A DNA stretch of 32,000 nucleotides, from assembly GCA_037444445.1 (NCBI GenBank), contig JBBIMK010000007.1, positions 47,647 through 79,646 of the forward strand, written 5' to 3'. Made by a program: the position numbers and the translations under genes. The notes below the pieces were generated by a model. It did no database searches. It was not told the DNA's origin and was given only the letters and a program-made list of their open reading frames with translations. Origin of the DNA: a bacterium (GTDB lineage: Bacteria > UBP7 > UBA6624 > JBBIMK01). This document shows positions 9,508 to 31,380 of the stretch, one piece after another (the first letter of the stretch is position 1; every line of letters starts with the position of its first letter).

Positions 9508-9523
9508 CGTCAGTGGAATCCGA

Positions 9524-10237: not shown

Positions 10238-10299
10238 GTGAGGCAAATATAAATTTTTGATGAAAAAAATATGAAAGAATGATGAATTTTTAATGGGGG

Positions 10300-10980: not shown

Positions 10981-11009
10981 CCCTGTATTCCACCTCCAGC
11001 CTAACTATT

Positions 11010-12032: not shown

Positions 12033-12517
12033 TTGCGACGAATGGCCCGAGAGAGGTGAACCATCTCCAGGCAGACGAGGGCGGCTTCTGCCCCCTTATT
12101 TCCCATTTTTCCCCCCGCCCGCTCCAGGGCTTGCTCCAGAGTATCCGCCGTGAGGACTCCGAAAGCAATTGGAACTTCACTCTCCAGGGTCAATCGAGCA
12201 ATCCCCCGACTGACCTCCGCCGCAATCACATCATAATGAGAGGTTTCCCCCTTGAGGACAGCGCCCAGAGCAATCACTCCGTCCCCTGCTTTCCCGCTCT
12301 TCAGAAGGGTGCGAATCGTAAAAGGAATCTCAAAAGAGCCTGGCACCCGATAAACGGCTATATGTTCCTCCGCTACCCCGTATCTGCACAGAGCATCCAC
12401 CGCACCCTGAAGAAGAGACTCGGTAACCAGCCCGTTGAACCGGCTCACGACAATGCTGAAAGTAAGCCCTGTTCCGTCCATCCGATTTAGGGCAGGACCC
12501 TTATTTCCTTTTTTCAT
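12029..12517 (-). CDS. ribH: 6,7-dimethyl-8-ribityllumazine synthase
   Basis: Motifs VPGSFEIP, GAVLKGETSHYDVIA, FGVLT, ERAGGKMGNKGAEAA. Confidence 0.92.
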   Translation of the reverse strand: MKKGNKGPALNRMDGTGLTFSIVVSRFNGLVTESLLQGAVDALCRYGVAEEHIAVYRVPGSFEIPFTIRTLLKSGKAGDGVIALGAVLKGETSHYDVIAAEVSRGIARLTLESEVPIAFGVLTADTLEQALERAGGKMGNKGAEAALVCLEMVHLSRAIRRK

Positions 12518-12530
12518 AAAAATAGTCGCC

Positions 12531-13751
12531 TCAATCCTCTTCCCATTGGAGTTGAAACAGGTGGCCTAATTTTTCTTTTTTTGCCTTCAGATACTTCACA
12601 TTTTCCTTATTGGGTAAGATTTCCAGAGGGACTCGCTCCACAATCTCCAGGCCGAAGCCTTTCAAGCCGATAATTTTTTTCGGGTTGTTCGTCATCAGGC
12701 GCATTTTCCGCACATTCAGGTCGAGGAGAATTTGGGCGCCGACGCCGTATTTTCGCAAGTCCGGAGGAAAGCCAAGGGCCTGGTTCGCCTCCACAGTGTC
12801 CAGCCCCCTCTCCTGGAGAGCGTAGGCTTTAATTTTATTATGCAAGCCAATGCCACGACCCTCCTGGCGCATATACACGAAAACTCCTTTCCCCGTTTGA
12901 CCTATCTGGGAGAGAGCAATCTCTAATTGCTCCCCGCAATCACATCGCAGGGAATGAAACACATCTCCGGTCAAGCATTCCGATTGGACGCGGACCAGCA
13001 CCGGGTCTTCCGGATGAATCTCGCCCATAACCAGCGCAACATGATGCTGGTGATTGAACTTTTCGCGATAAGCATAAATGGTGAATACGCCAAAAGGAGT
13101 GGGAAGGTGAGCCTGAGAAACCTTTTCAATCAACCTCTCGCGCTGGAGGCGGAATTCAATCAAATCTGCGATGGAAATGATTCGCAGGTGATGCTTCTGA
13201 GCAAATATCTCCAGGTCTGGGAAGCGTGCCATGGTTCCATCTTCTTTCATAATCTCGCAGATAACGCCCGCGGGATACAGCCCGGCCAGTTTAGCCAGGT
13301 CTACACTGGCTTCCGTATGGCCTGCTCGTTCTAAAACCCCACCCCTGCGGGCCTTGAGAGGGAAGATATGGCCGGGGCGCTGAAGGTCCCCCGCCTTCGT
13401 CTCCGGGTTCACTAAAACCCAAATCGTTCGCGCCCGGTCGTAGGCAGAAATGCCAGTCGTAATCCCCTGGCGTGCATCCACCGAAACGGTGAAGGCTGTG
13501 CCATTGCGGTCTTCCATCTGCATATCATTAGACATCAGGGGCAGACCCAGTTCCTCCACTCTCTCCGGAGTCAGTGCGGCGCAAATCAGCCCCCGCGCTT
13601 CACGGGCCATAAAGTTAATGGCCTCAGGTGTAATCTTCTGGGCCGCCATCACCAGGTCGCCTTCATTCTCACGCCCCTCATCATCCACCACAATCACAAA
13701 CCGCCCTTGCTGGATGTCCTCAATGGCATCCTTAATTCGGCTTAATGGCAT
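12531..13751 (-). CDS. ribBA: Bifunctional 3,4-dihydroxy-2-butanone-4-phosphate synthase / GTP cyclohydrolase II
   Basis: The DHBP synthase half has DDEGRENEGDL, GHIFPL and HTEASVDLA. The GTP cyclohydrolase II half has ECLTGDVFHSLRCDCGEQL and YMRQEGRGIGL. Confidence 0.93.
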   Translation of the reverse strand: MPLSRIKDAIEDIQQGRFVIVVDDEGRENEGDLVMAAQKITPEAINFMAREARGLICAALTPERVEELGLPLMSNDMQMEDRNGTAFTVSVDARQGITTGISAYDRARTIWVLVNPETKAGDLQRPGHIFPLKARRGGVLERAGHTEASVDLAKLAGLYPAGVICEIMKEDGTMARFPDLEIFAQKHHLRIISIADLIEFRLQRERLIEKVSQAHLPTPFGVFTIYAYREKFNHQHHVALVMGEIHPEDPVLVRVQSECLTGDVFHSLRCDCGEQLEIALSQIGQTGKGVFVYMRQEGRGIGLHNKIKAYALQERGLDTVEANQALGFPPDLRKYGVGAQILLDLNVRKMRLMTNNPKKIIGLKGFGLEIVERVPLEILPNKENVKYLKAKKEKLGHLFQLQWEED

Positions 13752-13774
13752 TTTCCATTCCCTGCCATCTATTC

Positions 13775-13783
13775 ATTATACCA
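13775..13783 (-). promoter_or_regulatory. Candidate extended -10 promoter element for ribBA operon
   Basis: The minus strand reads TGGTATAAT (TGn + perfect TATAAT), 24 nt upstream of the ribBA ATG. There is no good -35. Confidence 0.35.
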
Positions 13784-13854
13784 GATGCAGGTGAAATTTC
13801 CACCCTGAACTGCCTTTTCCAAATCTCAAAAGTATATTATGATATATAGTAGAA

Positions 13855-13884
13855 TTGAATTCGCAGGATGCGAGACGATAAAAT
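13855..13884 (+). promoter_or_regulatory. Candidate sigma70 promoter for the ferredoxin-NADP reductase gene
   Basis: TTGAAT (13855-13860), an 18-nt spacer, then TAAAAT (13879-13884), about 25 nt upstream of the ATG at 13909. Confidence 0.4.
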
Positions 13885-13908
13885 TTTACCCGGGGGTGGG
13901 GGTGGCGG

Positions 13909-14907
13909 ATGAATAAGTCTTCTGACCTTTATGACATCACCATCGTTGGAGGGGGACCTACAGGTCTTTTCGCAGCATTTTATGCGGGTATGCGGGAACT
14001 CAAGACCAAAATCATTGAGGCCCTGCCAGAACTCGGTGGGCAACTCTCAGTCCTTTACCCCGAGAAGTACATCTACGATGTGCCAGGCTTTCCAAAAATT
14101 CTGTCAAAAGAATTGGTCAAAAACCTGATAGAGCAAGCTATGACCGCAAACCCTACCCTGTGCCTGGAAGAGAGGGCGCTGACTCTCCGGCGGCGAGAGG
14201 ATGGCATCCTTGAACTGGAAACGACCAAAGGGCTTCATATCTCCAGAACCGTTCTCATCGCCGCTGGCGTGGGTGCCTTCTCGCCAAATAAACTCTCTAT
14301 CCCCGATGCAGAAAAGTTTGAAGGGAGGGGAGTGTTCTACTTCGTCCGAGAAAAAGCCCTCCTGAAAGGTAAAAAAATCCTTATCGTGGGAGGGGGCGAC
14401 TCCGCCGTAGATTGGGCTCTCAACCTCAAGGACGAGGCTGAAAAAGTCACCCTCGTTCACCGCAGGGATGTTTTCCGTGCTCACGAGTCCTCTGTGAAAC
14501 AACTCTTCCATGCCGGTATTGACATATTCCTCTTCTGGGAAGTGAAAGAACTTCATGGAAATGAACGCCTCGAGGAAGCACTCATCTTCAACAATAAAAC
14601 CAGGGAGACGAAAGTGTTACCCGTGGATGTGGTCCTGATAAATATCGGATTTAAGGCTGACCCCGGTCCCATCCGGAACTGGCCTGTGGAGTTTGAGGGG
14701 CGTCACATTAAAATCAACGGAAGAATGGAAACCAGTCTACCTGGCGTCTATGCCGCAGGGGACATCGCCCATGACCCTGCCTCCGTGTATTTTGACCTTA
14801 TCGTAATCGGCTACGCCCAGGCGGCAGTCGCAGTGAATTGCGCTGCCAATTACATCAACCCGAAAGCCACCCTTTTCCCGGGTCACTCCTCGGAGCGCTC
14901 CTCATAA
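13909..14907 (+). CDS. Thioredoxin-reductase-type ferredoxin-NADP+ reductase (YumC-like)
   Basis: YDITIVGGGPTGLFAAFYAGMR....IIEALPELGGQL..LYPEKYIYDVPGFPKI is the hallmark N-terminus of type-2 FNR. A second dinucleotide fold is present (ILIVGGGDSAVDWAL), as is the motif GVYAAGDIA. Confidence 0.88.
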   Translation: MNKSSDLYDITIVGGGPTGLFAAFYAGMRELKTKIIEALPELGGQLSVLYPEKYIYDVPGFPKILSKELVKNLIEQAMTANPTLCLEERALTLRRREDGILELETTKGLHISRTVLIAAGVGAFSPNKLSIPDAEKFEGRGVFYFVREKALLKGKKILIVGGGDSAVDWALNLKDEAEKVTLVHRRDVFRAHESSVKQLFHAGIDIFLFWEVKELHGNERLEEALIFNNKTRETKVLPVDVVLINIGFKADPGPIRNWPVEFEGRHIKINGRMETSLPGVYAAGDIAHDPASVYFDLIVIGYAQAAVAVNCAANYINPKATLFPGHSSERSS

Positions 14908-14915
14908 CTTCCGTC

Positions 14916-16340
14916 TCAGGGAACCCCCAGGGCATCCAACTGCTGGTTAGCCACCAGAAGCAGGTAGCGAGCATATTTGGCGTTGTGGACCCCAAAGGAG
15001 CCGTCGTGCTCCACATAATAATAGTTATAACGGGCACGCTTTATCTGAATGGGAATCAGGTCCTGGCCTGTGGCTCCAGAAGAGGGACCACCGTATGATG
15101 AATATTCCCAGGAAAGAGCCCCTTTTCCTTGAATATTCGCCTGCACTCCCCAGGCATCCAGGCGGTTTTTCAAGGTGGCGAGTTTGGCTTCTATGTCGCT
15201 TTTCGTATTCAGCATTCTGGCGGCGGCGTCGCTGATGCTGTGGCAGGGAGAACATCCCTCCAGCCGAATCCTGAAGGTGTGTCCTGTAATTGCCGGGTTG
15301 TCCTCACTTTCATATTCCTTCATAGAAACATGGCAGGTGGCACACTGCCTGGGAGTGAAGCGATGTTCGGAAAGCGCCGGGGAACCCCCGTCTTCCACAC
15401 CCCCCAGCCCCAGGAGAAAGTCCAATTGAACTGAGTAGTGCGCAGCGCGAGAAGTATTCATCGCCAGGCCTGCATCTGTCGGGTCGGCGCCCCGCCGGTT
15501 GTGGCACTGCCCGCATACCTGGTCTATCCGACTATACACATTGATGTCTGTGGAATCTCCACCCTGATAGGGGTCTTGCTCCGGGTCCCAGTATTCTTTA
15601 TGCCTTAACTGGGCTTCTTCACCTTCTGCGGCATTATTCCCGGTAGCCTTGTGAGGGTCGTGGCAAACCGCACAGGTTTGAGCCGTCATCTCTTCCCTGG
15701 TCTTACCCACTAAATTCGGTGAGGCAAGGGCGTTTTCCATGACCATCACCCGGTAATCACCCGAGTGGCAGGGACCGCAGGAAACGAGTCGTGCCGGGCC
15801 ATTCACAGGGTCCGCTAAATATCCAGCCACATGCTCGGTAACTTTCGTGTGAGAGCTAACTTCCCACTCATCGTAGGTGGGATGATGAGCATCCGTGTGG
15901 CATTTCCCGCAAAGACTTGCGGCGAGAATCCCGGGATAGGTGAGAATTTTCGTCTTATCCCCACCAGAACTCACATGTTGCTCTCCAGGCCCGTGGCAGT
16001 TCTCACATTGGACACCCCCCAGCCCCGGGGTAGATGTGGCATCTTTGAAACCGGACTCAAACCCATATCCCAGAGTGTGGCATGACAGGCATTCTGAATT
16101 CGTGCCGAATCCGATTTGCTGTAGACTCGTCAGTGCCTGAGAATGCCTGGTGGTCTGCACTTCATCGTAGATAGTTTGGTGGCAGTTTTTGCAGGTGTCC
16201 GCACCCACATACCTTCCCCCGCTGGGTAGTGGCAGTGTGGGACCTGTCGTTACTCCACCCTGATTACAGGTGACCACCGTGAAAACTGCCAGAATCACCA
16301 GCATCCACATACTTCCACTCACCCTCCATCTCATACCCAA
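14916..16340 (-). CDS. Multihaem c-type cytochrome, 9 CXXCH, probable lipoprotein/surface cytochrome
   Basis: CXXCH x9: CKNCH, CLSCH, CENCH, CGKCH, CGPCH, CAVCH, CGQCH, CATCH, CSPCH. The signal sequence ends AVFTVVT|C (imperfect lipobox). The formal start is TTG at 16340; an ATG at 16334 is also well spaced from GGAGGG. Confidence 0.85.
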   Translation of the reverse strand: MGMRWRVSGSMWMLVILAVFTVVTCNQGGVTTGPTLPLPSGGRYVGADTCKNCHQTIYDEVQTTRHSQALTSLQQIGFGTNSECLSCHTLGYGFESGFKDATSTPGLGGVQCENCHGPGEQHVSSGGDKTKILTYPGILAASLCGKCHTDAHHPTYDEWEVSSHTKVTEHVAGYLADPVNGPARLVSCGPCHSGDYRVMVMENALASPNLVGKTREEMTAQTCAVCHDPHKATGNNAAEGEEAQLRHKEYWDPEQDPYQGGDSTDINVYSRIDQVCGQCHNRRGADPTDAGLAMNTSRAAHYSVQLDFLLGLGGVEDGGSPALSEHRFTPRQCATCHVSMKEYESEDNPAITGHTFRIRLEGCSPCHSISDAAARMLNTKSDIEAKLATLKNRLDAWGVQANIQGKGALSWEYSSYGGPSSGATGQDLIPIQIKRARYNYYYVEHDGSFGVHNAKYARYLLLVANQQLDALGVP

Positions 16341-16376
16341 CTATCCCTCCTTTATCATTTTGGTTTCTTTGAAGTT

Positions 16377-17594
16377 TTATTGCCCTCCTGACCAGTCCAG
16401 CCCCTGTTTGTTGGGATTCTTGTGAATATCGTAGGTCACATCATCATCCGTTCCAGCCATTTGCTGTTTTGTCTTGCTCATATGGCATCGCTTGCAGGAA
16501 TAATCCAGGGTTAAATAACCAATCCCTGCCGTGAGGACAACCCGGTCCGGTTCATCCGTTCCACCGATATCATTCGGGTCATCTTCCAGAAAGGCACGGT
16601 CGGGGTCCATAGAAATGGCAAACAGGTGAGTTTTCACATCCCCCACGAGAGTATTGGTATCTCCCACAGCGCTCTTCGTGGCCTGTGCCATATGGCAATC
16701 ATTGCAAGTCACCCCAGCCCGAGCCATAGTGCTGGAAGAGAATGTTGTGGCTACATCCTTATGGCACTCTTCGCAGGTCACGCGAATGGATTCGCTGGAT
16801 TTTCTGTGAGGGTCGTGGCAGGTGATGCATTCCATCCGGGCATTCTGGTAGTGACGAGTAGCAATATATTCGTTATATTGCTCGTGATGGGCAATGAAGG
16901 GAGCCTTCGCCAGAATCGTAGTAGGGAAGGGGCTGGAGGTTTTCCTCACACCCCGATAATGGCAGTCTCCGCAAAGGTCAGAACTCTGAAACTTCGGGAG
17001 GCTTTCACGGAAATTGACATGACGAGAGCCTCCTCCACCATGGCATCTTTCACACTGGATGCCTTCAAACACCCATGTGCCCGAGATTCCCGGTAGCTCG
17101 CCCTGGTGGCCATCAGAAGAGAACCCCGTCGTATGGCAGGAGCCACAATTATACTTCTTCGTCCCACAGGGATTGCTTGTATACTTCACGAAACTGCCGG
17201 TTGCAAAGTTATATTGTGCTCCATCTCCAGTGAGAATATACCCGTTCTTGTCCACATACCGCGCCTTCCAGCGATACCCTCCAATCACATAACTGATGTC
17301 GTTCCAGTTCGTAGGAGAGCAGACACTTTGTGCTGGAAAAGGAATTTCAGGCAAGCCATAAAAGGGTGCTTCAATCGCTAAGGATGTAGTGCGTAATTTC
17401 CAGGGATGTCCGCTTCTGAGAAAACTATCGTAAATGTCCAGGTGACATCTGCCACAGACTGGAGAGCCGACAAACTCCGCAGGACCCAGAGCCTCTTCGG
17501 ATATCACCTTCTGTAAACTCTTCCCGCAGGAAGCCAGCCCTGCAAGGAAGAAAACCACTACAAGGAAATGCCTGATTCCTTCTTTCACTTTCAT
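16377..17594 (-). CDS. Multihaem c-type cytochrome lipoprotein, 8 CXXCH
   Basis: Lipobox FFLAGLAS|CGK. CXXCH x8: CGRCH, CGSCH, CERCH, CGDCH, CITCH, CEECH, CNDCH, CKRCH. There is a 12-nt gap to the upstream barrel gene, with a GAGGGA RBS. Confidence 0.87.
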   Translation of the reverse strand: MKVKEGIRHFLVVVFFLAGLASCGKSLQKVISEEALGPAEFVGSPVCGRCHLDIYDSFLRSGHPWKLRTTSLAIEAPFYGLPEIPFPAQSVCSPTNWNDISYVIGGYRWKARYVDKNGYILTGDGAQYNFATGSFVKYTSNPCGTKKYNCGSCHTTGFSSDGHQGELPGISGTWVFEGIQCERCHGGGGSRHVNFRESLPKFQSSDLCGDCHYRGVRKTSSPFPTTILAKAPFIAHHEQYNEYIATRHYQNARMECITCHDPHRKSSESIRVTCEECHKDVATTFSSSTMARAGVTCNDCHMAQATKSAVGDTNTLVGDVKTHLFAISMDPDRAFLEDDPNDIGGTDEPDRVVLTAGIGYLTLDYSCKRCHMSKTKQQMAGTDDDVTYDIHKNPNKQGLDWSGGQ

Positions 17595-17606: not shown

Positions 17607-19226
17607 CTAAAAATTTTTTCTGATTTGAAATTCCAAAAACCGGGCATCCCCAAAGGTAGCATCCAGTTTATCCTCATAAAAATTGTAGATAGCGGAAAGA
17701 TTTACAGTGAAATCCGGTAAGAATTCCCGGGAAACAGAAACATCCCAGTTATCCTCCCGAATCTTATTGCTCTCAAAGAAGTTGCCCACCTTCGTCCTGC
17801 CAAAAAGATAAGAAATAGAGGCGTGGGTCTTATCATCCAACCCCCAATCTACACCCAAGAGTGTGGATTCCTGATTCTGCACAATGTCGTAAGGGGCAGG
17901 AAACTCTCCTGCCGGCCTCAATTCCTTCAAGAATCCCTCCACATCCCACTGGGAGAAGAGATAGGTAGCAGTAAGGACAAGGTTCTCCCGGACCGCACAG
18001 GAGGCAGTGAAATTGTGAAGCGTCCATTCCCGCCCCTGAACCCCATAAGGCGAAACGAGGTCATAATTCCCGATTTCGTCCACGAAGAAATAAGTGAAGG
18101 AAAGAGAACCCGTTGGTGCATAAGAGAAGGAAATATCCCCACGGGATTTTTTGAGTGGCAATTCTTCCGTGTTCATCAGGTGAGTGTTCAGAATTTGCAA
18201 GGCATCCCGGAGGGTTCGGCGGTAAGAGGTTTTCAGGGAAAATTTTTTGAACTTTGCCCGGTAGGTCACCCCGTATTCTCTGGTTCTTTGCTGTTGGATT
18301 TCCGTTCCTCCCAAATCCGTCGTATCCCAGAAAGCATTCGCCTGAAGAGTATGATAGGAATAGGAAGAAGAATCCATTTTCCAGGTATAATCTGCGGAAA
18401 GGTCCAGGCGTTCGCCATTTAAGGTCAACCCTGTGGGAGAATCAGATTTATGTCGGCGGGTAGAGTAGGTGGAAAGTAACGAGAAATCTTTCCCGGGATT
18501 GAAAGAGACGCTGGAGGACCAATCTGTGATGGAAACATCACCGGGATTGGAGACATCATCCAGACTCTCCAGACCACGGGTGAGAAGGCTGGAGGAAAAA
18601 TAATAGGAACCCTTCCAGCGGGACTGAGCAGTCATAGAAAAAGAGGAAAGGTCATACCCCAGAGAGGGGTGGAAGAAATGGATTCTGGAGGCATCGGCAA
18701 GGAAGGCAAGAGAACCGAGGATGGCTTGTCCGGAAATGCCCCGAATCCGGTTCTTCTGCCCCACCTCTTCCCGGAAGGTATTCCAACCCATTTTATCCTC
18801 CTCGGATAAATACACAGTCAGATGAGCAGGATTCAGAGGAAGTATCGTCCAGTTCCAGGCGTGGATATTTCGCTGGGTGCTCTCGGCGAAAGAAAAATAG
18901 TGGGGATATTTCTCATAGGAACCTTTGGAAATCAAAGAATCCTTGTAATTCCAGTCCAGACCTGCGAAAACATCCTGTCCCCCCAAGCCACTCCCCGAGA
19001 AACGGAAGAAAAAGGGTGAAGGTTCACCCTGAAGGCTCAATTTGAAAAGATAAAAACTACTGGGGGGAAAATACTGATATTCATTCCAGCGAGCCATCCG
19101 ATTCTGCCGCTCCCGCACCGAGCGGACCCCGGGAGCAATCTCCTCCACAAAGAGAACAGCACCCATAGAGACCAAACTCACGCTGAGAAGGAAACCGAAA
19201 ACACAGAGGGAAAGTCGTCTCTTCAT
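17607..19226 (-). CDS. Outer-membrane beta-barrel protein, positional analogue of MtrB/PioB/DmsF
   Basis: Signal peptide present. The ~510-aa mature protein shows alternating amphipathic strands rich in Y/S/T/G. The C-terminus ...LEFQIRKNF carries the terminal Phe typical of BAM substrates. The gene starts 10 nt after the decahaem gene stop. Confidence 0.72.
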   Translation of the reverse strand: MKRRLSLCVFGFLLSVSLVSMGAVLFVEEIAPGVRSVRERQNRMARWNEYQYFPPSSFYLFKLSLQGEPSPFFFRFSGSGLGGQDVFAGLDWNYKDSLISKGSYEKYPHYFSFAESTQRNIHAWNWTILPLNPAHLTVYLSEEDKMGWNTFREEVGQKNRIRGISGQAILGSLAFLADASRIHFFHPSLGYDLSSFSMTAQSRWKGSYYFSSSLLTRGLESLDDVSNPGDVSITDWSSSVSFNPGKDFSLLSTYSTRRHKSDSPTGLTLNGERLDLSADYTWKMDSSSYSYHTLQANAFWDTTDLGGTEIQQQRTREYGVTYRAKFKKFSLKTSYRRTLRDALQILNTHLMNTEELPLKKSRGDISFSYAPTGSLSFTYFFVDEIGNYDLVSPYGVQGREWTLHNFTASCAVRENLVLTATYLFSQWDVEGFLKELRPAGEFPAPYDIVQNQESTLLGVDWGLDDKTHASISYLFGRTKVGNFFESNKIREDNWDVSVSREFLPDFTVNLSAIYNFYEDKLDATFGDARFLEFQIRKNF

Positions 19227-19236: not shown

Positions 19237-20112
19237 CTAATTCAGAAACCGCTTATCTCTGTTGGAACCATGAATGCTCTTGTGGCATCGGGTGCAACGC
19301 ATGAGTTCTGTGCGGGAGTTTTTATGAAATAGAAAAGCATCTGCATGGCACTGCAGGCAGAGAGCAGGTTGACGAAGCGCCAGCAAATCCTGATTGGGCG
19401 AACCATGCGAGAGATGGCAGGCGGAACAGGATTCCAGAACCGGCTTGTGCTCATAAACGAAAGGACCCATTTTTTCCTGATGACATTTCACGCAGGGTGT
19501 CGTTCGGGAAGGCTGACGCTGGAGCATCTTCAGGCTCTCGTGAGGATTATGACAGTCGGAGCAGGATACCTTTTTCTCACGAATCGGATGCCGGGATGGC
19601 ATCTGAATTTGCGCCTTTAACGATGGATGGCAGGAAAGGCAGAGCGGGGTTTCCTCCTCCTTGAGAAGCCCTTTCTTTCCACGATGGGGGTCGTGACAGG
19701 ATGTGCAGGAGGTCCCCCGGCGAGAATGCTGGGTTAATTTCCAGTCCTTCCGTTCATGGCAGGAAGTGCAAGCCACAGCAATCTCATCGGGTGAAGTGGT
19801 CCGAAAATTCCTAATCTCCGTTCCATCCGCTTTCTCTATGTGAAGAGAGCCAGGACCGTGGCACGCCTCACATCCGCTTTTCCTGGAGGGTTCCTCTTTT
19901 TCAAATAAAATCCGGTGCGCCGTGGCTTTGAACCCCACTTCTTTCCCCTCGTGGCAAGTGATGCACTGGCTGAACCCCACATACTCCTTTTTAGCAGGTT
20001 CTTCCGCAAGAACAGGGAATGACCACCAGAGGAAAAAAACAGCGGTCATCCACAGGAAGGATGTCCGCTTCACGCCCCCTGTTGCGGTGTCCCTTTTTTC
20101 ACTCATCTTCAT
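19237..20112 (-). CDS. Periplasmic decahaem c-type cytochrome, MtrA/DmsE family
   Basis: CXXCH x10 in 291 aa. The family-typical block is MGPFVYEHKPVLESCSACHLSHGSPNQDLL. Sec signal ...WWSFPVLA|EEP. The RBS GGAGGG abuts the first ATG, so the third codon ATG (20106) is the likelier start. Confidence 0.88.
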   Translation of the reverse strand: MKMSEKRDTATGGVKRTSFLWMTAVFFLWWSFPVLAEEPAKKEYVGFSQCITCHEGKEVGFKATAHRILFEKEEPSRKSGCEACHGPGSLHIEKADGTEIRNFRTTSPDEIAVACTSCHERKDWKLTQHSRRGTSCTSCHDPHRGKKGLLKEEETPLCLSCHPSLKAQIQMPSRHPIREKKVSCSDCHNPHESLKMLQRQPSRTTPCVKCHQEKMGPFVYEHKPVLESCSACHLSHGSPNQDLLALRQPALCLQCHADAFLFHKNSRTELMRCTRCHKSIHGSNRDKRFLN

Positions 20113-20258
20113 CCCTCCAGCGCCCTTCCATCATCCATTCTGATACTCTGAAAGCACTGAGACAATGACTTCTATCAGAAATTTTCCTGACTTTCTGCAA
20201 AGGGGAAATGAATATGGATGAACCCTGTATGAAAAAAGAATCACTTTACATATTGTAT
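20068..20258. repeat. Direct repeat copy A (183 bp perfect, 191 bp with 1 mismatch): promoter/5' UTR/first 15 codons
   Basis: 20068-20250 is identical base-for-base to 25484-25666 (offset 5416). The match extends to 20258/25674 with one mismatch. Confidence 0.95.
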
Positions 20259-20270
20259 CGGTTTCTAAGG

Positions 20271-21344
20271 CTACTTATAGGCATAATAAAAGGTCAGCCT
20301 GTAGAAGAGGTCGTTCTTCGGGGTGGGTCCGGAAACGGGCTTATCATACCTCACCATTTCGAGGTTTGGAATCAGATGCACATCCGGAGCGAGTGCGTAA
20401 TCCAGCCCGAGAAGGTAGAAAGCAGGTTGGGCGTCCGGTGAAACGGAGAGATAGGCGATGTTGTTAGCCCCTGGCACAGGGTCGCTCACCCTATCCATAC
20501 GAAAGAATGGCTTCACCTTCTCTGAAGTTTGATAATCCGCATAAAAGGAAAGCACGGAGAGTTCCAGGTCCCTGTCAGGAGGGGGTCGTTTTCGGGTCTG
20601 CACGGCATAAAGAAGCCCGCCACGAAATGCCTTCTTTTTGTAAACCAAAAATCCCTGGAGAGTGCGCCAGTCCTGATTCTGCGGCTTATTCCACAGGTCC
20701 GCATATCCTTCCACATAGAGTTCCGGAGTGAGCCAGCGGGAAAGAGAAGTATACACGGTTTTCCCTTTATCAGTTTCTGCCTTCGTTCCGCTTCCATTGC
20801 CCAGCATAACCCAGTAAGCGGTTCTCTTTCTTCCATCCAGATAGCCCCGGATGGAAACACCGGTATCTCTGGATTCTCCCATTTTGTAAAGGTCCAATGG
20901 AGTTTTCTCCACGGGGCGATATCCTAAAATCCCCTCTACACTTTCCCAGGTAGGGGTAGGTATCAGGCCAAAAGAAATACTCCGAAGACCCCGGGAATGC
21001 TGCAAGTAAGCATCTTTCACATAGGGCTTTAGCGTATCGCTGGTGGTAAAATCGCCGGGACTGTTCATCTCCAGCCTGAAACGAATCGCAAACCCGTTTT
21101 CCAGTTTCTGGTCGTAGGTGAAGTAAATCCGCCGGAACCAGAAGCCATTCATTCCTTCAATGGTTTCATCATGATGCCGGGAAGCAAAGTAGTAGTCGCC
21201 AAACATATAGCCGGAGATTTTCCCCGGCTCCTTTTTCCCTTCCTCAGCCATCGCTGAACCGGAAACCAGGCCGCCGAAAGTCAATCCGAAAAAAATACCC
21301 GCTATCACCAGCCATTTCTCAACTTGTTGCGTCCGAAAATTCAT
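20271..21344 (-). CDS. Outer-membrane porin-like beta-barrel (possibly anion-selective OprO/P-like)
   Basis: Sec signal ...GLVSGSAMA|EE. Amphipathic strand pattern: GYMFGDYYFASRH, FWFRRIYFTYDQKL, FAIRFRLEMNS. The start is 3 nt after the Mo-subunit stop, so the two are co-transcribed. Confidence 0.68.
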   Translation of the reverse strand: MNFRTQQVEKWLVIAGIFFGLTFGGLVSGSAMAEEGKKEPGKISGYMFGDYYFASRHHDETIEGMNGFWFRRIYFTYDQKLENGFAIRFRLEMNSPGDFTTSDTLKPYVKDAYLQHSRGLRSISFGLIPTPTWESVEGILGYRPVEKTPLDLYKMGESRDTGVSIRGYLDGRKRTAYWVMLGNGSGTKAETDKGKTVYTSLSRWLTPELYVEGYADLWNKPQNQDWRTLQGFLVYKKKAFRGGLLYAVQTRKRPPPDRDLELSVLSFYADYQTSEKVKPFFRMDRVSDPVPGANNIAYLSVSPDAQPAFYLLGLDYALAPDVHLIPNLEMVRYDKPVSGPTPKNDLFYRLTFYYAYK

Positions 21345-21347
21345 CTT

Positions 21348-24300
21348 CTAACTCCCTCCTTCACCTTTTTTTTCAGATACCAGCCTCACCTTTGTATCGT
21401 AGAACGAAACACTTCCACCGACCGGATCGAGCAGGCACGTGTTCTTCAGATAGTCATCCAGTCGCATGGCGGCGTTGGCGTGAACACCTGTGGCGCGACG
21501 CGGGTCGCCTGTGATTGTCTTTCCATCCACAACAACATCAGATGAACCGTTTGCCCAATGGCCGTGTCCCAGTGAAAAACCGATGATGCCGGGTCGAATC
21601 CCTTCAATGACTTTCACCTCTCCGACCATCGGTTTCTTTACGCCATTCTTGAGATCCCACACTCCCTCGGCGTTGGACCTGGAAACAAACTTTACCTTCA
21701 TCCCATCACTCAAACCGAGTCGGCTTGCATCAATAGAATTGACCAGCACGAAGTTCTGCGGCCGAATTGCACTCAGCCAGTAGTTTGTGATGGTTCGGCT
21801 CTTTGTCTGCGTGATATCACGAAATGTAATCAGGTGAAGATTAAAGCCATCCCGTTCGTCGGTGACTTCCTTGCCGGTCACATCGGCAATCGGGAGATAC
21901 GTTGCCACAGGAAAGAGATTCTTTCCCGTGATTGCGGACTTCGCTTTGCCATATTTTTCCAGGTACAGATTGATAAGTTGTCCGTACTTGTTCTTGAACT
22001 TCTCTCCATCATAGGCCTTTTCGTAATCCTGGAAACGACCGCCGCGGTTGAGTACGTACACCACTTTCTTCCACCATTGTTCGCCGACGACCCTCTTCCA
22101 TCGTTCAACATCAAAGACTGTCTTTGGCAGATGACGACGGGCTTGTTCGAATTGCTGCAACTCCCACTGGTCTGCATCGGGGACTTCGTCGCCCGGTTTG
22201 TCTCCGGCGGCGAGATTCGCCACCATCCTTAAGTAGAAATCTTCCTGCCGCACAAGGTCCATCCCTTCGCCCAGACCATTCTTGCCGAAACCGGGCAGTC
22301 CCAATTTCTCTGCGATGCCGAGAATCATCGTCTCCAACGAGATTGGCTGTTGTTCGCCGAAGACCGTAACACTCTCCGGTATCGGCGCAATGACCGGGTT
22401 GCGCACCGGCTGGGCTTTCTGCGGAATGCTCGGATGGCTGCCATGAAATTCCCACCGCTCCAGGTAAGAGAGGTCGGGAAAAATGTAGTCGGCGTACATA
22501 GACATCTCACCGATGGTGATGTCGCTTGCCACATACAGTGGAATCTTGTTCACATCGGATAGGATTTCAATGTTGGTTTGTCCCCCTGGCAAGGAATATG
22601 TGGCTGCTGCCATATATGAGAAAAGAATCTTTGACGAATACGGATATGCATCACCCATTGATGGAATAATCTCCTGATAAATATCGCTGGAAAACGGAAA
22701 CCACTGTCGCTTTGCAGGATAGCCGTTGAAGATGGTGGACTCTTCGTAGTTCACCTCGTGGCGAATAGTGCTGATACCAAACGGACTAATCTTTTTGGGA
22801 TGGAGTCTGGCGAAGTTAAACGGATGGCCTTCTTTGGAGCCGTCAATGGAATATGTACTCGCCTTTATCAGCCCGCCCTTCCAGTCAAAGTTGCCGATGA
22901 GTGCATTGAGCGTATAGACCGCTAACACGTTGTAGAAGCCGTTCGTGTGTTGTGAGACGCCGCGGTGCGGGTCGGCGACCGCTTTCTTGCCGTGAGATGT
23001 GAACTCTTGCGCCAGTTCAATAATGTCGTTTGCTCTGATTCCGCAAATATCAGCCCACTGTTCAATCGTTTTTGATGATGCACTCTCGTACACAATTTGT
23101 AAGCCCGTCTTCACTGCAATGCCACCGACGCTTGTGTTAACGAACAGGTCGCCGACCACAGGATTCTTCTCATCGTTCGGGTCGAATGCCACCGGCTTTC
23201 CGTCCTTCATCACGACGAAGGCGTCAAACTCCCATTCTTTTCCATCCTTGGTTTGCCGTTTCTCTTTAGGCGCAAGGTTGATTTCCGATGCGCGTAAGAA
23301 CGAACCATCCTCCTTCACCAGCCAGGTGCCGTTCGTCCACGACTGTTCGCCGGCGGCGTTCGCTGCGGCTCGATTCGCATTCTGCAAGAACTTATCATCA
23401 TAGCGTTTGTTCTCGATGATCCAGCGAATCATTGCCAGAGCAAATGCTCCGTCCGTGCCCGGTTTGATCGGTACCCACTTGTATGCTTTCGATGCGATCT
23501 TCGAGAATCGTGGATCGACGACGGCAATCTTTACTTTCTTCTCAACGAGATTCTTCATCAGCTTCTTGGCATGATGAGGTGGACCATATCCGCCTTCAAT
23601 GTACGCTGAGCCGATCGCTAAAAGAAACTCCACATTGCTTGTGTCAGCCTGCCAGTAGAATTTCTGCCCGCCGGTCAACTTCCCCTCGGCGAACTGGTCG
23701 CTCATGGCTTTGCCCGTAAAGTAGAGCGAACCCTGGCAGACGGTCGTGTGCCCGTGTGCGTTGATGGAGCCGAACGAATCGCTGATGAAGCGCTTGATGA
23801 ATTCTGCCCGCCCGGCTTTCAGTCTTCCCCAGATGAAACTCACCTGATTGTTCTTCGGACCGAGATCGGGATGATCCGGATCGATGAGCGTGTGCAGATG
23901 ATTGGCAAACTTCTTCTTGAATTCTTCGACCGCCGCTTTCTTCTCCTCAGGAGTTTTCTTTTTCCGAATTTCTTCTATTGCCGAAGCCATCTCCTTTGCG
24001 ACTTTCGGATCCCGAAGCGCGTAGAACTCCTTCAACCCTTGAACATGGCGATTCTCTTCTCCCTTGACATGCGAGAACAGCTTTCCGCCGTTGACAATCT
24101 CGCTGACCGCTTGCTCGAAGGAAATCGTTTTCCACTTGTTCTCGCCGCGCTTGCCGGCTCGCTTGAGGACTTTGACCAGGCGATAAGGATCGTAGGCCGT
24201 TTGAATGCCGGCTTGACCTTTCGGACAGAGTGAGCCGTTGATCTTCGTCGTCTCGTTCAGCGGGGTCTTGTACGGCAGGCTCGGGACAAACGTCCAGGGA

Positions 24301-24596
24301 CTATACGGATTGCCTTCAATCTTCACCGCGACACCGTTGAGAACTTTCACTTTGATGCCGCAGCCGGTGTTGCATTGCAGACAAACCGAGCGCAAGATGT
24401 TTTCTGCTTTGGAAAGTTCGTACTCTTCGGCAGGGGAGAGCACGCCCGCCTCTGCTCTGGAAAAAAGGTTCTGTGCCCATTCCAGCTGGCTGAGTAATAC
24501 GGCGCTACCGCCAAGGAACGCAGAGCTTTTGAGAAAACTACGGCGGGTACGCGGCGTTGATTTGCTACGAGTTCTGCCGGTAATTTCGTTGTTCAT
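21348..24596 (-). CDS. Tat-exported molybdopterin (DMSO-reductase-family) oxidoreductase catalytic subunit, TtrA/PsrA-like
   Basis: Tat motif TRRSFLK in MNNEITGRTRSKSTPRTRRSFLKSSAFLGG. N-terminal Fe-S motif CLQCNTGC...C(PKG). MopB-type blocks HGHTTVCQGS and VVDPRFSK. At about 1080 aa it is of TtrA size. AGGAGG lies 7 nt before the ATG at 24596. The longer ORF to 24629 would overlap the upstream gene. Confidence 0.88.
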   Translation of the reverse strand: MNNEITGRTRSKSTPRTRRSFLKSSAFLGGSAVLLSQLEWAQNLFSRAEAGVLSPAEEYELSKAENILRSVCLQCNTGCGIKVKVLNGVAVKIEGNPYSPWTFVPSLPYKTPLNETTKINGSLCPKGQAGIQTAYDPYRLVKVLKRAGKRGENKWKTISFEQAVSEIVNGGKLFSHVKGEENRHVQGLKEFYALRDPKVAKEMASAIEEIRKKKTPEEKKAAVEEFKKKFANHLHTLIDPDHPDLGPKNNQVSFIWGRLKAGRAEFIKRFISDSFGSINAHGHTTVCQGSLYFTGKAMSDQFAEGKLTGGQKFYWQADTSNVEFLLAIGSAYIEGGYGPPHHAKKLMKNLVEKKVKIAVVDPRFSKIASKAYKWVPIKPGTDGAFALAMIRWIIENKRYDDKFLQNANRAAANAAGEQSWTNGTWLVKEDGSFLRASEINLAPKEKRQTKDGKEWEFDAFVVMKDGKPVAFDPNDEKNPVVGDLFVNTSVGGIAVKTGLQIVYESASSKTIEQWADICGIRANDIIELAQEFTSHGKKAVADPHRGVSQHTNGFYNVLAVYTLNALIGNFDWKGGLIKASTYSIDGSKEGHPFNFARLHPKKISPFGISTIRHEVNYEESTIFNGYPAKRQWFPFSSDIYQEIIPSMGDAYPYSSKILFSYMAAATYSLPGGQTNIEILSDVNKIPLYVASDITIGEMSMYADYIFPDLSYLERWEFHGSHPSIPQKAQPVRNPVIAPIPESVTVFGEQQPISLETMILGIAEKLGLPGFGKNGLGEGMDLVRQEDFYLRMVANLAAGDKPGDEVPDADQWELQQFEQARRHLPKTVFDVERWKRVVGEQWWKKVVYVLNRGGRFQDYEKAYDGEKFKNKYGQLINLYLEKYGKAKSAITGKNLFPVATYLPIADVTGKEVTDERDGFNLHLITFRDITQTKSRTITNYWLSAIRPQNFVLVNSIDASRLGLSDGMKVKFVSRSNAEGVWDLKNGVKKPMVGEVKVIEGIRPGIIGFSLGHGHWANGSSDVVVDGKTITGDPRRATGVHANAAMRLDDYLKNTCLLDPVGGSVSFYDTKVRLVSEKKGEGGS

Positions 24597-24607
24597 TATG
24601 CGGCCTC

Positions 24608-25528
24608 CTATGAATGACAAACCATGCATGTCTGTTCTGGTTCGTCATGCAGATAGTAAATCATCGGTTCCGCCCCGCTGGCGAGATTCAGGCGCACTGC
24701 TTTGTGGCGTTTGAGCAGTTTGGAGACGAGACTGTCGTTGTCATTGAGGTCGCCGAAGTGCATAGCCTGACCGGTGCAGGTTGTAACGCAGGCGGGGAGT
24801 TCACCGGCATCAATGCGTTGGGTGCAGAAGTGACACTTACGCGTGGTGCCTTTTGTATCTTTGCGAGTCCATCCAATTCCGTATTCCCTGAACGACCGTT
24901 TCTCGTATGGCTGGAGAGCGGGCGTGCCGTCGGTGTAGTTTTTTCCCTCATCGTACCACAGCGAGTACGGGTACGGGCACGCTTTGCTGGCAGCTTCAAA
25001 GACTTTCTTCCCCTTCATCTTCTTGTAGTGGATCACGACGATGCCATCCGGTCGCCGGGACATGGAACCGGGGATAACACGGTTAGCCGCTTCAATACAC
25101 GGAGCGTTCTTACATTGCATGCAATTGGTCGGCATGAAGAAGCGGCGAAGTTCCGGGTAAGAACCATCCTCTACTTCCGCAACGGTACGATACCTGACGC
25201 CGGGAGGCAGATTATTCTCCGCTATGCAGGCGACAGCACACGCATTGCAACCGATACACTTGCGAATGTCAATTACCATCGCCCACTTCCGCTGCTTCAT
25301 CGGCTTTTCCAACGCACGCTGAAGGTCATTGTGCATCGTGAGCATGTCGTTGCCCGGAGTACCGGTGACCGTTTTAGCCAAAAGGGTTCCCACTTCTTTT
25401 ACTCCGGGAAGAAACGCTGTTGCAGCAACTGCGCCTGCTGCAACACCCGTCGTGCGCTTGAAAAAGGCACGACGCGAGAGCCTCTTCACGCCCCCTGTTG
25501 CGGTGTCCCTTTTTTCACTCATCTTCAT
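24608..25528 (-). CDS. Tat-signal 4x[4Fe-4S] ferredoxin-type electron-transfer subunit (TtrB/PsrB/DmsB family)
   Basis: Tat motif SRRAFFK. Cys clusters: CIGCNACAVAC, CMQCKNAPC, a CPYP segment, and CHFCTQRIDAGELPACVTTC. The first 15 codons are identical to those of the decahaem gene (repeat). Confidence 0.9.
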   Translation of the reverse strand: MKMSEKRDTATGGVKRLSRRAFFKRTTGVAAGAVAATAFLPGVKEVGTLLAKTVTGTPGNDMLTMHNDLQRALEKPMKQRKWAMVIDIRKCIGCNACAVACIAENNLPPGVRYRTVAEVEDGSYPELRRFFMPTNCMQCKNAPCIEAANRVIPGSMSRRPDGIVVIHYKKMKGKKVFEAASKACPYPYSLWYDEGKNYTDGTPALQPYEKRSFREYGIGWTRKDTKGTTRKCHFCTQRIDAGELPACVTTCTGQAMHFGDLNDNDSLVSKLLKRHKAVRLNLASGAEPMIYYLHDEPEQTCMVCHS

Positions 25529-25674
25529 CCCTCCAGCGCCCTTCCATCATCCATTCTGATACTCTGAAAGCACTGAGACAATGACTTCTATCAGAAATTT
25601 TCCTGACTTTCTGCAAAGGGGAAATGAATATGGATGAACCCTGTATGAAAAAAGAATCACTTTACACATTGTAT
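25484..25674. repeat. Direct repeat copy B (183 bp perfect, 191 bp with 1 mismatch)
   Basis: Identical to 20068-20250 (see copy A). Confidence 0.95.
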
Positions 25675-25696: not shown

Positions 25697-26233
25697 TCAG
25701 GATAAATCCAGGCGGAGAAGAGGGAAGGAGCCATCATCCCGAACGATATGAAAACCATTTTTCAAATAAAAACCCAGGGGTCCGGAGGGATTATTGGCGG
25801 ACTTTTTACGGGCGAAAGTTTCAATAGCCTTCCATCCTTTCTTCCGAGCCATAGTAATGACTTCTTTCAGCATCGCTTTCCCGGTGCCCCGACGACGGAA
25901 ATCCGGGTCGGGGATATACAGACAGCAAAGGAATAGAGCATCCGGATCCACCGGGCCGGCGGCATAACTCCAGATCTGGGGTGCAAACGAAGGGGGGCAG
26001 AATTGGGCAAACCCTACCGCCTGCCCTTCCTCATAAGCCAGCACACCACAGGAGTCTATTTCTTCAATCAGCCGGGTCAGGATTTCCTTCTTCCTCTCCA
26101 TCGCTTTCGGGTCGCCACAGGTGGGGTCAAAATTCTGCGGGTCCTCCCAGTACAGGCAATACGGACAACGCCCCGGAATCTCACCCATCCGCTCCCCCGT
26201 CAGAGGAAGTATCTTCACTTCTTTCTCTGCCAT
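25697..26233 (-). CDS. GNAT-family N-acetyltransferase
   Basis: Acetyl-CoA binding motif RRRGTGKAMLKEVITMARKKGWK (R/Q-x-x-G-x-G/A) and the C-terminal FYLKNGF. Confidence 0.82.
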   Translation of the reverse strand: MAEKEVKILPLTGERMGEIPGRCPYCLYWEDPQNFDPTCGDPKAMERKKEILTRLIEEIDSCGVLAYEEGQAVGFAQFCPPSFAPQIWSYAAGPVDPDALFLCCLYIPDPDFRRRGTGKAMLKEVITMARKKGWKAIETFARKKSANNPSGPLGFYLKNGFHIVRDDGSFPLLRLDLS

Positions 26234-26598: not shown

Positions 26599-27738
26599 TC
26601 AGGCGAGGATATTTCGGGCGATGACCATCCGCTGAATCTCGGAGGTGCCCTCGTAGATTTCCGTTACTTTGGCATCCCGGAAATATCTCTCCAGGGGATA
26701 CTCCTTAGAGTAGCCGATTCCGCCGTGAATCTGGATGGCTTTCGTGGTAACCCACATAGCGGTCTCGGAGGCAACCAGTTTCGCCATGGCACTCTCCGTG
26801 GTAAATCGCTCCCCTTTATCTTTCTTCACCGCTGCTTGATAAGTGAGGAGCCTGGCGGCTTCTATCCGGGTGTGCATTTCCACCAGCATCCACTGAATGG
26901 CTTGAAACTCTGCAATTTTTTTTCCGAAGGCTTCCCGCTGTTTGGCGTAATCTATGCTGGCTTCGTAGGCGGCTTCGGCGATACCGAGGGCTTGAGCGGC
27001 GATGCCAATCCGCCCCGCATCCAGGATGGTCATAGCGATTTTAAAGCCTTCTCCTTCTTCGCCGAGGCGGTTCTCCACGGGCAGGCGATAGTTGTCGTAA
27101 TGCATTTCACAGGTATGGGAGGCACGAATGCCCAGTTTCGGCTCAATTTTACCGATTTCCACACCGGGGAGAGATTTATCCACGATGAAGGCAGAAACGC
27201 CCCGATGCCCTTTAGAGGGGTCTGTCATAGCGAAGAGAATCACATAATCCGCCTCCGCACCCGTGGTCACCCAGGATTTTGTGCCGTGAATGACATACAC
27301 ATCTCCATCCCGCACAGCGGTCGTTTGCATGCTGGCCGGGTCAGAACCCGATGAGGGTTCTGTAAGAGAATATGCCCCCAATTTCTCACCCCGTGCTATC
27401 GGCACCAGATATTTCTGCTTCTGCTCTTCCATCCCGAATTTTAGTAACCCATAACAAACGAGAGAGTTAATGCCAGAAAGAATAGCACCATGGGAGGCGC
27501 AGACTTTAGAGATTTCCTCCACTGCGAGGATATAGGAAACGGTGTCCACCCCGGCGCCTCCATATTCCTTCGGCACCTCCAGCCCCATCAGCCCCAACTT
27601 CCCCATCTTCTTCACCGTCTCGTAAGGAAACTCTCCGGCTTCATCTATTTTTGCGGCAATGGGGGCGATTTCCCGCCTCGCAAAATCCCGCGCCATATCC
27701 CGTATCATTTTTTGAACCCGCGTCAGTTCAAAATCCAT
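26599..27738 (-). CDS. Short-chain (butyryl-CoA-type) acyl-CoA dehydrogenase, copy 1
   Basis: Full-length 379 aa with ACAD hallmarks: GAYSLTEPSSGSD, the WVTTG context, QIHGGIGYSKEYPLERYFRDAKVTEIYEGTSEIQ. Confidence 0.93.
   Translation of the reverse strand: MDFELTRVQKMIRDMARDFARREIAPIAAKIDEAGEFPYETVKKMGKLGLMGLEVPKEYGGAGVDTVSYILAVEEISKVCASHGAILSGINSLVCYGLLKFGMEEQKQKYLVPIARGEKLGAYSLTEPSSGSDPASMQTTAVRDGDVYVIHGTKSWVTTGAEADYVILFAMTDPSKGHRGVSAFIVDKSLPGVEIGKIEPKLGIRASHTCEMHYDNYRLPVENRLGEEGEGFKIAMTILDAGRIGIAAQALGIAEAAYEASIDYAKQREAFGKKIAEFQAIQWMLVEMHTRIEAARLLTYQAAVKKDKGERFTTESAMAKLVASETAMWVTTKAIQIHGGIGYSKEYPLERYFRDAKVTEIYEGTSEIQRMVIARNILA
26868..27000. repeat. Second near-identical block shared (inverted) with acd copy 2
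   Basis: The reverse complement of 26868-27000 matches 31868-32000 with 2 mismatches in 133 nt. The match is truncated by the window end. Confidence 0.9.
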
Positions 27739-27746
27739 TCCTCATC
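27488..27746. repeat. Inverted repeat arm L (acd 5' end + 8 nt upstream)
   Basis: The reverse complement of 27488-27746 matches 31122-31380 with 3 mismatches in 259 nt. Confidence 0.92.
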
Positions 27747-27757
27747 ACCCACTCTCC

Positions 27758-27785
27758 ATCCTACATAAACTTAATCAGGTTGCAA
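27758..27785 (-). promoter_or_regulatory. Candidate sigma70 promoter of acd copy 1
   Basis: Minus strand: TTGCAA (27785-27780), a 16-nt spacer, then TAGGAT (27763-27758), about 20 nt upstream of the ATG. Confidence 0.3.
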
Positions 27786-30984: not shown

Positions 30985-31121
30985 TTATTTTATTCGGAAA
31001 GGAAAATCCTTACAACCAGGGGGCGAGATGAATCGTCGTTTGATGTGAAAGAGAGGTATTCGGGTTCCCCGTTTTTTCTTCTTGAAAACTTTAAAATTTT
31101 TTCGTAGGATTTTTTGAAGGC

Positions 31122-31380
31122 GATGAGGAATGGATTTTGAACTGACGCGGGTTCAAAAAATGATACGGGATATGGCGCGGGATTTTGCGAGGCGGGAAAT
31201 CGCCCCCATTGCCGCAAAAATAGATGAAGCCGGAGAGTTTCCTTACGAGACGGTGAAGAAGATGGGGAAGTTGGGGCTGATGGGGCTGGAGGCGCCGAAG
31301 GAATATGGAGGCGCCGGGGTGGACACCATTTCCTATATCCTCGCAGTGGAGGAAATTTCTAAAGTCTGCGCCTCCCATGG
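31122..31380. repeat. Inverted repeat arm R (acd copy 2 5' end + 8 nt upstream)
   Basis: See arm L: 3 mismatches in 259 nt. Confidence 0.92.

Follow-up and report, generated by a model that had tools for sequence, protein, structure and literature searches.

Locus and repeat

We describe a direct repeat, termed R, in a 32,000-nucleotide (nt) stretch of the bacterial contig JBBIMK010000007.1; this stretch as a whole is called the window. The two copies of R stand at the start of two gene sets on the minus strand (Table 1). Copy R-B lies between a gene for a GNAT acetyltransferase and a set that encodes an iron–sulfur (Fe-S) subunit, a molybdopterin (Mo) catalytic subunit and a predicted outer-membrane protein (OMP357). 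Copy R-A lies between OMP357 and the genes of a putative electron conduit, namely a decahaem cytochrome, a second putative outer-membrane protein (OMP539) and two multihaem lipoprotein cytochromes (cyt405 and cyt474). The copies are offset by 5416 nt and agree at 192 of 194 positions. The two mismatches, at 20251/25667 (A/G) and 20067/25483 (C/A), enclose a perfect core of 183 consecutive identical bases (20068-20250 and 25484-25666). A first-pass annotation of this DNA had noted the 183-nt repeat, and its identity, offset and coordinates were all borne out. R is by far the longest direct repeat of the window (the runner-up measures 38 nt), and a chance origin of the match is ruled out. A sensitive blastn search with the repeat found no third copy in the window. 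The flanks of the two copies are unrelated and the ends are sharp: DNA homology to the Fe-S genes of two related loci, L001 and L003 (L numbers designate compared loci or contigs), starts at 25477, immediately beyond the end of R-B.

Table 1. Positions of the repeat copies, the signals within them and the surrounding genes (window coordinates; SD, Shine-Dalgarno sequence; Tat, twin-arginine translocation)
Feature	Position	Strand	Remarks
R-B	25481..25674	minus	begins 22 nt past GNAT stop; ends 2-3 codons ahead of the Fe-S subunit's Tat motif SRRAFFK
R-A	20065..20258	minus	begins 12 nt past OMP357 stop; ends right ahead of the Sec hydrophobic core of the decahaem cytochrome
Translation initiation region in R-A	20104..20118	minus	SD GGAGGG 20113-20118, ATG1 20110-20112, ATG2 20104-20106
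Translation initiation region in R-B	25520..25534	minus	identical to the region in R-A; GGAGGG 25529-25534
Candidate sigma70-like promoter TTGTCT-17-CAGAAT	20137..20165 and 25553..25581	minus	8/12 consensus positions
Imperfect palindrome TCAGGAAAATTTCTGA	20175..20190 and 25591..25606	minus	possible regulator site
GNAT acetyltransferase	25697..26233	minus	upstream neighbour of R-B
Fe-S (four-cluster) subunit	24608..25528	minus	Tat signal; TtrB/ArrB-like; 'type I'
Molybdopterin catalytic subunit	21348..24629	minus	own Tat signal RTRRSFLK; TtrA best family match, far under cut-off
OMP357	20271..21344	minus	predicted outer-membrane protein; signal peptide; 'type II'
Decahaem cytochrome, DmsE/MtrA family	19237..20112	minus	periplasmic; Sec signal
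OMP539	17607..19226	minus	putative MtrB-like outer-membrane barrel; terminal Phe
cyt405, multihaem lipoprotein cytochrome	16377..17594	minus	lipobox LASC
cyt474, multihaem lipoprotein cytochrome	14916..16340	minus	15415-16011 missing from a relative strain

Read on the minus strand, each copy contains 146 nt of non-coding DNA before the first ATG (138 nt of them in the perfect core), a GGAGGG motif, two in-frame ATGs and the codons MKMSEKRDTATGGVK, and the codon that follows specifies Arg in both copies (CGG versus AGG). Beyond R the signal cores diverge into FLWMTAVFFLWWSFPVLA (Sec) in the decahaem cytochrome and SRRAFFK (Tat) in the Fe-S subunit. It had been observed earlier, correctly, that a single n-region serves one Sec and one Tat signal. 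The same annotation counted 15 shared codons. A shared N-terminal peptide is indeed present, but its length is likelier 13 codons, because the GGAGGG motif is spaced 1 nt from ATG1 and 7 nt from ATG2 (20106/25522) and because the NCBI gene calls on the source contig begin at ATG2 (P0121, 304 amino acids; P0242, 289 amino acids).

The non-coding part of R holds a candidate sigma70-like promoter and an imperfect palindrome, both at the coordinates that had been noted before. The promoter hexamers fall under the threshold of the promoter scan and hence went unreported by it. Exact matches to the palindrome are confined to the two copies of R; elsewhere in the window there are two matches with three mismatches, both inside coding regions. 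R contains no sigma54 consensus site. Rfam gave no match at the gathering score across the whole window, and in the repeat region only chance-level matches at E values up to 10. The predicted RNA fold of R does not stand out from those of shuffled sequences (z-score −0.56). With neither an Rfam match nor a significant fold, a riboswitch or another cis-regulatory RNA of known type, such as the Moco RNA motif, was rejected. No terminator was found between GNAT or OMP357 and the copy of R that follows, so that read-through from either gene is equally possible. R-A may therefore act as an internal promoter or as a translation-initiation region alone.

The family assignments of the gene products differ in strength. 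The decahaem cytochrome scores 219 bits against TIGR03508 (cut-off 192) and matches the MtrA chain of Protein Data Bank (PDB) entry 6r2q with an E value of 6.5e-39. In passing, we note that this chain of MtrCAB (6r2q_A) is listed under the molecule name 'Cystathionine beta-synthase', apparently a mislabel in the source file. The Mo subunit is TtrA/PhsA-like, with a TtrA score of 487 bits against a cut-off of 1750 bits and a dmsA_ynfE score of 139 bits against 778. The Fe-S subunit reaches 118 of the 416 bits set for TtrB and scores slightly higher with ArrB. The cluster contains no gene for an NrfD/TtrC-like membrane anchor. OMP357 has no family match and no PDB sequence match, and its single-sequence AlphaFold model (pLDDT 31.5) is unusable; its description as a porin derives solely from the signal peptide, the aromatic-rich C-terminus and the conserved linkage. 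OMP539 likewise matches nothing in Pfam, NCBIfam or the PDB. By position, by size and by its terminal Phe it fits an MtrB/DmsF-type barrel, and a homologous cluster (L111) has a protein with a weak Porin_4 match in this place.

Only 3 nt separate the stop codon of the Mo gene from the start codon of OMP357. At this junction (21345-21375), the Mo subunit has about six extra C-terminal residues (SEKKGEGGS) relative to L001 and L109. The additional codons contain the GGAGGG ribosome-binding site of OMP357, and the initiation region of this gene, GGAGGGAGTTAGAAGATGA, is similar to that of R, GGAGGGATGAAGATGA.

The repeat in a second population

A second view of the locus came from a different sequencing run, SRR11582170, in the form of a Logan assembly (k = 31). 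Four of its contigs (L081 to L084) are 96.0-96.7% identical to the window at the nucleotide level; this population is referred to below as the relative. L083 (end of the Mo gene and OMP357) and L084 (GNAT) have their last 30 nt in common, ATACGATGTGTAAAGTGATTCTTTTTTCAT, which are the first 30 nt of R, and the flanks that precede them differ. L081 (decahaem and downstream genes) and L082 (Fe-S) have their first 30 nt in common, GAAGGGCGCTGGAGGGATGAAGATGAGTGA, which lie inside R, and differ from the next base onward. The contigs thus break with overlaps of exactly k−1 = 30 nt, as a de Bruijn graph gives at the edges of a repeat. Since these breaks coincide with the edges of R, all four flank–repeat junctions seen in the window exist in an independent data set as well, although the unitigs leave the pairing of the flanks undecided. 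R is genuine and not an artefact of assembly. The window has both hybrid open reading frames (ORFs) intact and in frame. The Fe-S hybrid ORF is intact in the relative too, whereas the decahaem ORF there keeps its frame across the repeat junction and is frameshifted further downstream.

The lesion in the relative's decahaem gene is an uncompensated 1-nt deletion (L081 position ~190, window ~19937) that shifts the frame past the first CXXCH motif. An in-frame 3-nt deletion affects the signal peptide (L081 ~100, window 20026-20028), and the gene caller reports only an internal ORF of 242 amino acids. This gene is either a pseudogene or the product of a unitig error. The relative's cyt474 lacks 597 nt (199 codons, in frame) that correspond to window positions 15415-16011 (L081 ~4096-4113). 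The direct repeat GGGGCTGGGGGGTGT, 15 nt long, bounds the gap and indicates that the strains differ by a deletion or insertion mediated by this repeat. The relative's Fe-S gene and OMP357 are intact.

At the other end of the locus, similarity between the relative and the window ends about 200 nt upstream of GNAT (L084 1-254; from window position 26434 upstream), and the acyl-CoA dehydrogenase gene at 26599-27738 has no relative at 90% identity or above in protein clusters. Together, these observations point to a strain-specific breakpoint beside the locus.

The four contigs make 94 of the 194 positions of R visible in the relative. Two sites are concerted: position 5 reads A in both copies of the window and G in both copies of the relative, and position 175 reads C and G in the same manner. 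Single copies stand out at position 8 (A in copy A of the window, G in its copy B and in both copies of the relative), at positions 161 and 176 (in each case G in copy A of the relative and A in the three others) and at position 191 (A in copy B of the relative, G in the three others). Position 192 is copy-specific in both strains, with C in copy A and A in copy B. This common difference marks an ancestral shared boundary and therefore dates the duplication to before the split of the two populations.

Given this age, the copies are more similar than independent divergence would predict. At the 3.7% rate of the flanks, at least 7.2 differences would be expected between the copies of the window, and one of 191 interior positions differs (Poisson P = 0.006). 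Orthologous copies of the two strains differ at 3-5 positions per 94 nt. On the 94 visible nt, paralogues within a genome are thus closer to each other than orthologues between genomes, and two sites vary together, as is expected of concerted evolution. Without gene conversion, positions 5 and 175 would need parallel mutations. Gene conversion after the strain split is the economical reading and is supported by these sequence comparisons. The first-pass annotation had offered a very recent duplication or gene conversion as the source of the identity; the concerted sites favour the second of these, whereas the same boundaries in a population that is diverged by ~3.7% speak against the first. 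The sites at which the relative's copies differ (161, 176 and 191) are all synonymous third-codon positions, and position 175 exchanges Ala for Gly between the strains. This pattern is consistent with translation of both copies, in a sample too small for a test.

Related loci and the hybrid make-up of the cluster

The comparison covered 80 loci from genomes that have Mo homologues and 22 from metagenomes that have OMP357 homologues. Wherever an OMP357-like gene was detected beside Fe-S and Mo genes, the order was OMP-FeS-Mo, with 14-86 nt between the OMP and Fe-S genes in three measured loci (L001, L006 and L109). The order FeS-Mo-OMP was absent from all related loci examined. None of the 80 Mo loci contains a decahaem gene in the fetched flanks (up to 10 kilobases (kb) per side where the contig allowed), and a set of 5.8 billion proteins holds no homologue of the decahaem cytochrome between 46% and 95% identity. 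The nearest homologue (43%) opens an operon of its own, decahaem-porin-MtrC-like, which has no Mo genes nearby and lies behind a 276-nt intergenic region and a two-component/sigma54 regulator pair.

The Fe-S and Mo genes of the window are 84-90% identical to those of L001 and 79-80% identical to those of L109 (84% and 79% for the Fe-S protein alone), and the outer-membrane proteins of these two loci share 30-32% of their residues with OMP357 (30% for L001). OMP357 itself groups with L085/L086 (80% nucleotide identity) and L087 (63% amino acid identity); the Fe-S and Mo proteins of L087 are 48% and 61% identical to those of the window. In L085/L086, the nearest outgroup by GNAT (86% amino acid identity), GNAT is followed after a 139-nt spacer directly by the OMP357 orthologue. 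R has no significant similarity to this spacer (score 18 versus 16.4 +/- 2.3 in shuffles), and a 17-nt resemblance between the spacer and the 22 nt that separate GNAT from R-B is not significant either. Among 112 related loci, R-like DNA was found nowhere except in the junction contigs of the relative. Judged by these comparisons, the locus is a lineage-specific hybrid that arose by rearrangement: between GNAT and a 'type II' outer-membrane protein there now lies a 'type I' FeS-Mo pair that lacks an outer-membrane protein of its own, and the conduit operon comes after them.

Several neighbouring observations concern the mobility and context of these genes. In L109, a gene for a phage-type integrase (6893-7900) lies about 1 kb upstream of the OMP-FeS-Mo module, the one with Fe-S and Mo genes that match the window's at 79-80% identity, as would fit horizontal mobility of the module. 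In L006, a metagenome-assembled genome (MAG) of Ignavibacteriales, genes for a PhnD-like periplasmic binding protein, an sCache histidine kinase and a sigma54 response regulator precede OMP-FeS-Mo, and molybdenum-cofactor biosynthesis genes follow it (3615-7398 and 13593-17327). The regulator trio is AioXSR/TtrSR-like and hints at an oxyanion substrate. L007 ('Candidatus Zhuqueibacter pondensis') repeats the 3' end of its Mo gene 7.9 kb downstream, over 302 nt and at 90% identity (12884-13185 and 20813-21114), and this copy may be a remnant of rearrangement. In the window, two inverted acyl-CoA dehydrogenase paralogues (26868-27769 and 31099-32000) are 81% complementary over 902 nt. The outgroup gene beside GNAT (L085) is 88% identical to the distal window copy and 79% to the adjacent one, a pattern that suggests inversion or conversion between the inverted paralogues. 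Further away, two tandem small ORFs of 104 and 105 amino acids (2960-3274 and 3415-3732) share a near-identical stretch of 38 nt and have no Pfam match.

Interpretation and comparison with known systems

We favour, with moderate confidence, the explanation that R equips the two gene sets with identical start signals and that the copies stay matched by conversion. R is a two-copy segmental duplication of a 'gene-start module' made up of an intergenic region, a Shine-Dalgarno sequence, a start codon and 13-15 n-region codons, and it would be native to the 5' end of the decahaem/porin/cytochrome (MtrAB-like) operon. Once the TtrAB-like Fe-S/Mo pair had been parted from its usual upstream porin gene and set beside the conduit genes, a copy of R was probably grafted onto the Fe-S gene, which would have created the in-frame hybrid Tat signal of this subunit. 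We infer that copying ran from the conduit to the Fe-S gene, which is likely because an Fe-S gene in this family normally lacks both a promoter and a long leader that belong to it, and because decahaem genes head operons. RecA-type gene conversion between the copies, 5.4 kb apart, would maintain their near-identity, and the two gene sets, provided with the same transcription and translation start signals, would tend to be co-expressed. If this explanation holds, the locus offers a clean case from nature of a bacterium that rewires a respiratory enzyme in a new place, with a ready-made promoter, ribosome-binding site and leader copied from the neighbouring operon and kept in step by gene conversion.

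Several points weigh against this explanation. The linkage across R comes from short-read assemblies in both data sets. The direction of copying is deduced from distant loci only, since no genome with a single copy of R was found. The promoter in R is a candidate with weak hexamers and without a sigma54 site, an Rfam match or a significant fold, and read-through from the upstream genes could make it unnecessary. Of the identical cis-regulation claimed in the first-pass annotation, the cis sequence is directly seen to be the same for both gene sets; an active promoter within it is less certain, as the hexamers match at 8 of 12 positions and read-through is possible. Finally, the relative combines a frameshifted decahaem gene and the loss of 199 codons from cyt474 with an intact Fe-S gene and an intact OMP357. 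This combination argues that the Mo enzyme is independent of the conduit, so that co-expression may be a by-product rather than a selected feature. If the lesions in the relative are real, the Mo module outlives the conduit. The functional link between enzyme and conduit that had been drawn earlier is weakened and partly contradicted by these findings.

The earlier annotation also viewed the repeats as the ends of an excisable cassette. R would then be a Campbell-type crossover site at which a 5.4-kb circle (R-FeS-Mo-OMP357) entered a GNAT-R-decahaem chromosome as a reversible plug-in. Direct, in-frame repeats of 194 nt make RecA-mediated deletion mechanistically possible, and by construction such a deletion removes 5416 nt and leaves the decahaem gene intact. 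A deleted chromosome plus a circle would account equally well for the de Bruijn graph of SRR11582170, a repeat-bounded deletion of 597 nt (GGGGCTGGGGGGTGT, 15 nt) separates the two strains in the same gene cluster, and a phage-type integrase adjoins the OMP-FeS-Mo module in L109. On the other hand, a Pfam scan of 20 of the window's ~28 long ORFs found no recombinase or transposase domain, and the precomputed Pfam entries of the L081 homologues gave the same result for seven further ORFs (8722-14907). All four junctions are present in both populations, the outgroup L085/L086 has GNAT followed by the OMP357 orthologue rather than the empty site GNAT-R-decahaem, and around the Mo module of ~110 related loci there are no comparable flanking repeats. 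The 3-nt coupling between the Mo stop and the OMP357 start resembles a settled operon. No deletion allele turned up; across the genomes compared, the Mo module proved to be modular, but in the form OMP-FeS-Mo and never beside a decahaem conduit. Excision is feasible on paper, yet we consider the reversible cassette unlikely. Mobile cassettes in the narrower sense (an integron cassette, an insertion-sequence composite or a site-specific island) were rejected, given that the scanned ORFs contain no recombinase domain and that no terminal inverted repeats were seen. A further reading, which we regard as unlikely, makes R a portable module for expression and export leaders that is under selection and that tied a Mo enzyme gained by horizontal transfer to the regulon of the outer-membrane conduit and to its stoichiometry. 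A DmsEFAB-like extracellular reductase would thereby have been assembled de novo in this lineage, and through the direct copies the 5.4-kb segment could, in addition, be reversibly lost or amplified, with on/off heterogeneity in the population as the outcome.

The sharp boundaries of R and its self-contained set of promoter, ribosome-binding site and start would also suit a regulatory or mobile promoter element that exists in multiple copies, R among them, in front of further genes of the genome and thus defines a regulon, the more so as our inspection covered 32 kb of a 79.6-kb contig. We find this improbable: R occurs in two copies only in the window and, apart from the relative's orthologous junctions, in none of 112 loci, and neither terminal inverted repeats nor target-site duplications were seen. 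A protein-level search with a tandem 48-residue query of the shared peptide did not recover even the known carriers. The single interior mismatch in 191 nt would also fit a very recent duplication in the strain of the window, without gene conversion. This account is highly improbable in view of the outer boundaries and the C/A difference at position 192, which are the same in a population diverged by ~3.7%, of the two concerted sites, and of an orthologue divergence in R (3-5 per 94 nt) that exceeds the paralogue divergence in the window. The source sequence is a short-read MAG contig, and 183-194 nt is longer than common k-mer sizes, which would favour an artefact, be it a repeat that was collapsed or misjoined or a contig that is chimeric. 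That the four junctions were recovered independently as unitigs, with exact k−1 overlaps and copy-specific single-nucleotide differences, and that the window keeps both hybrid ORFs whole and in frame (the Fe-S hybrid ORF is whole in the relative as well), makes an artefact scarcely credible. The explanation that we favour, a gene-start segment shared by duplication and matched by conversion, can next be compared with systems described before.

The enzyme pair resembles Salmonella TtrABC in that, among named families, the Mo subunit scores best with TtrA and the Fe-S subunit second best with TtrB, and in that each of the two has a Tat signal. It differs from this system by scores far under the equivalog cut-offs, by the absence of a TtrC anchor and by the porin gene that accompanies the pair in its relatives. 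As a cluster, the locus resembles the DmsEFAB extracellular DMSO/iodate reductase of Shewanella oneidensis, the modules of which have been described as interchangeable: both combine, in one cluster, a DmsE-family decahaem cytochrome, an outer-membrane barrel (a putative one in our case), and molybdopterin and four-cluster Fe-S subunits (PMC9048795). The enzyme described here may or may not be extracellular. In contrast to DmsEFAB, the Mo subunit is TtrA/PhsA-like and not DmsA-like, the cluster contains an extra small outer-membrane protein and two lipoprotein cytochromes, and the linkage between Mo and decahaem genes is conserved in no relative examined. We know of no duplicated promoter/leader segment in Dms.

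Repeated 5' regions in outer-membrane conduit loci have a precedent in the tandem gene groups orfR-ombB-omaB-omcB plus orfS-ombC-omaC-omcC from Geobacter sulfurreducens (PMC4589669, PMC4282303), where duplication gave adjoining gene sets repeated upstream sequence. There, however, the duplication covers a whole four-gene operon and yields paralogues, whereas here 194 nt head two unrelated genes. A promoter, ribosome-binding site and leader segment that recurs at several genes and is kept alike by gene conversion is familiar from the upstream homology boxes of Borrelia and from the 5' regions of babA and babB in Helicobacter pylori. Families of this type have paralogues behind the shared segment, and their system is one of antigenic variation. 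R is akin to these surface-protein segments, but it precedes unrelated respiratory proteins that are exported by Sec in one case and by Tat in the other. We found no report of such an arrangement in the literature. R is a tidy but modest case of promoter/leader duplication and opens no long-standing question; an n-region that can be used in Sec and Tat signal peptides alike is of some interest for signal-peptide engineering. In terms of genome evolution, R represents a short segmental duplication under concerted evolution, and what sets it apart is that the genes downstream of its copies are unrelated and follow different export pathways.

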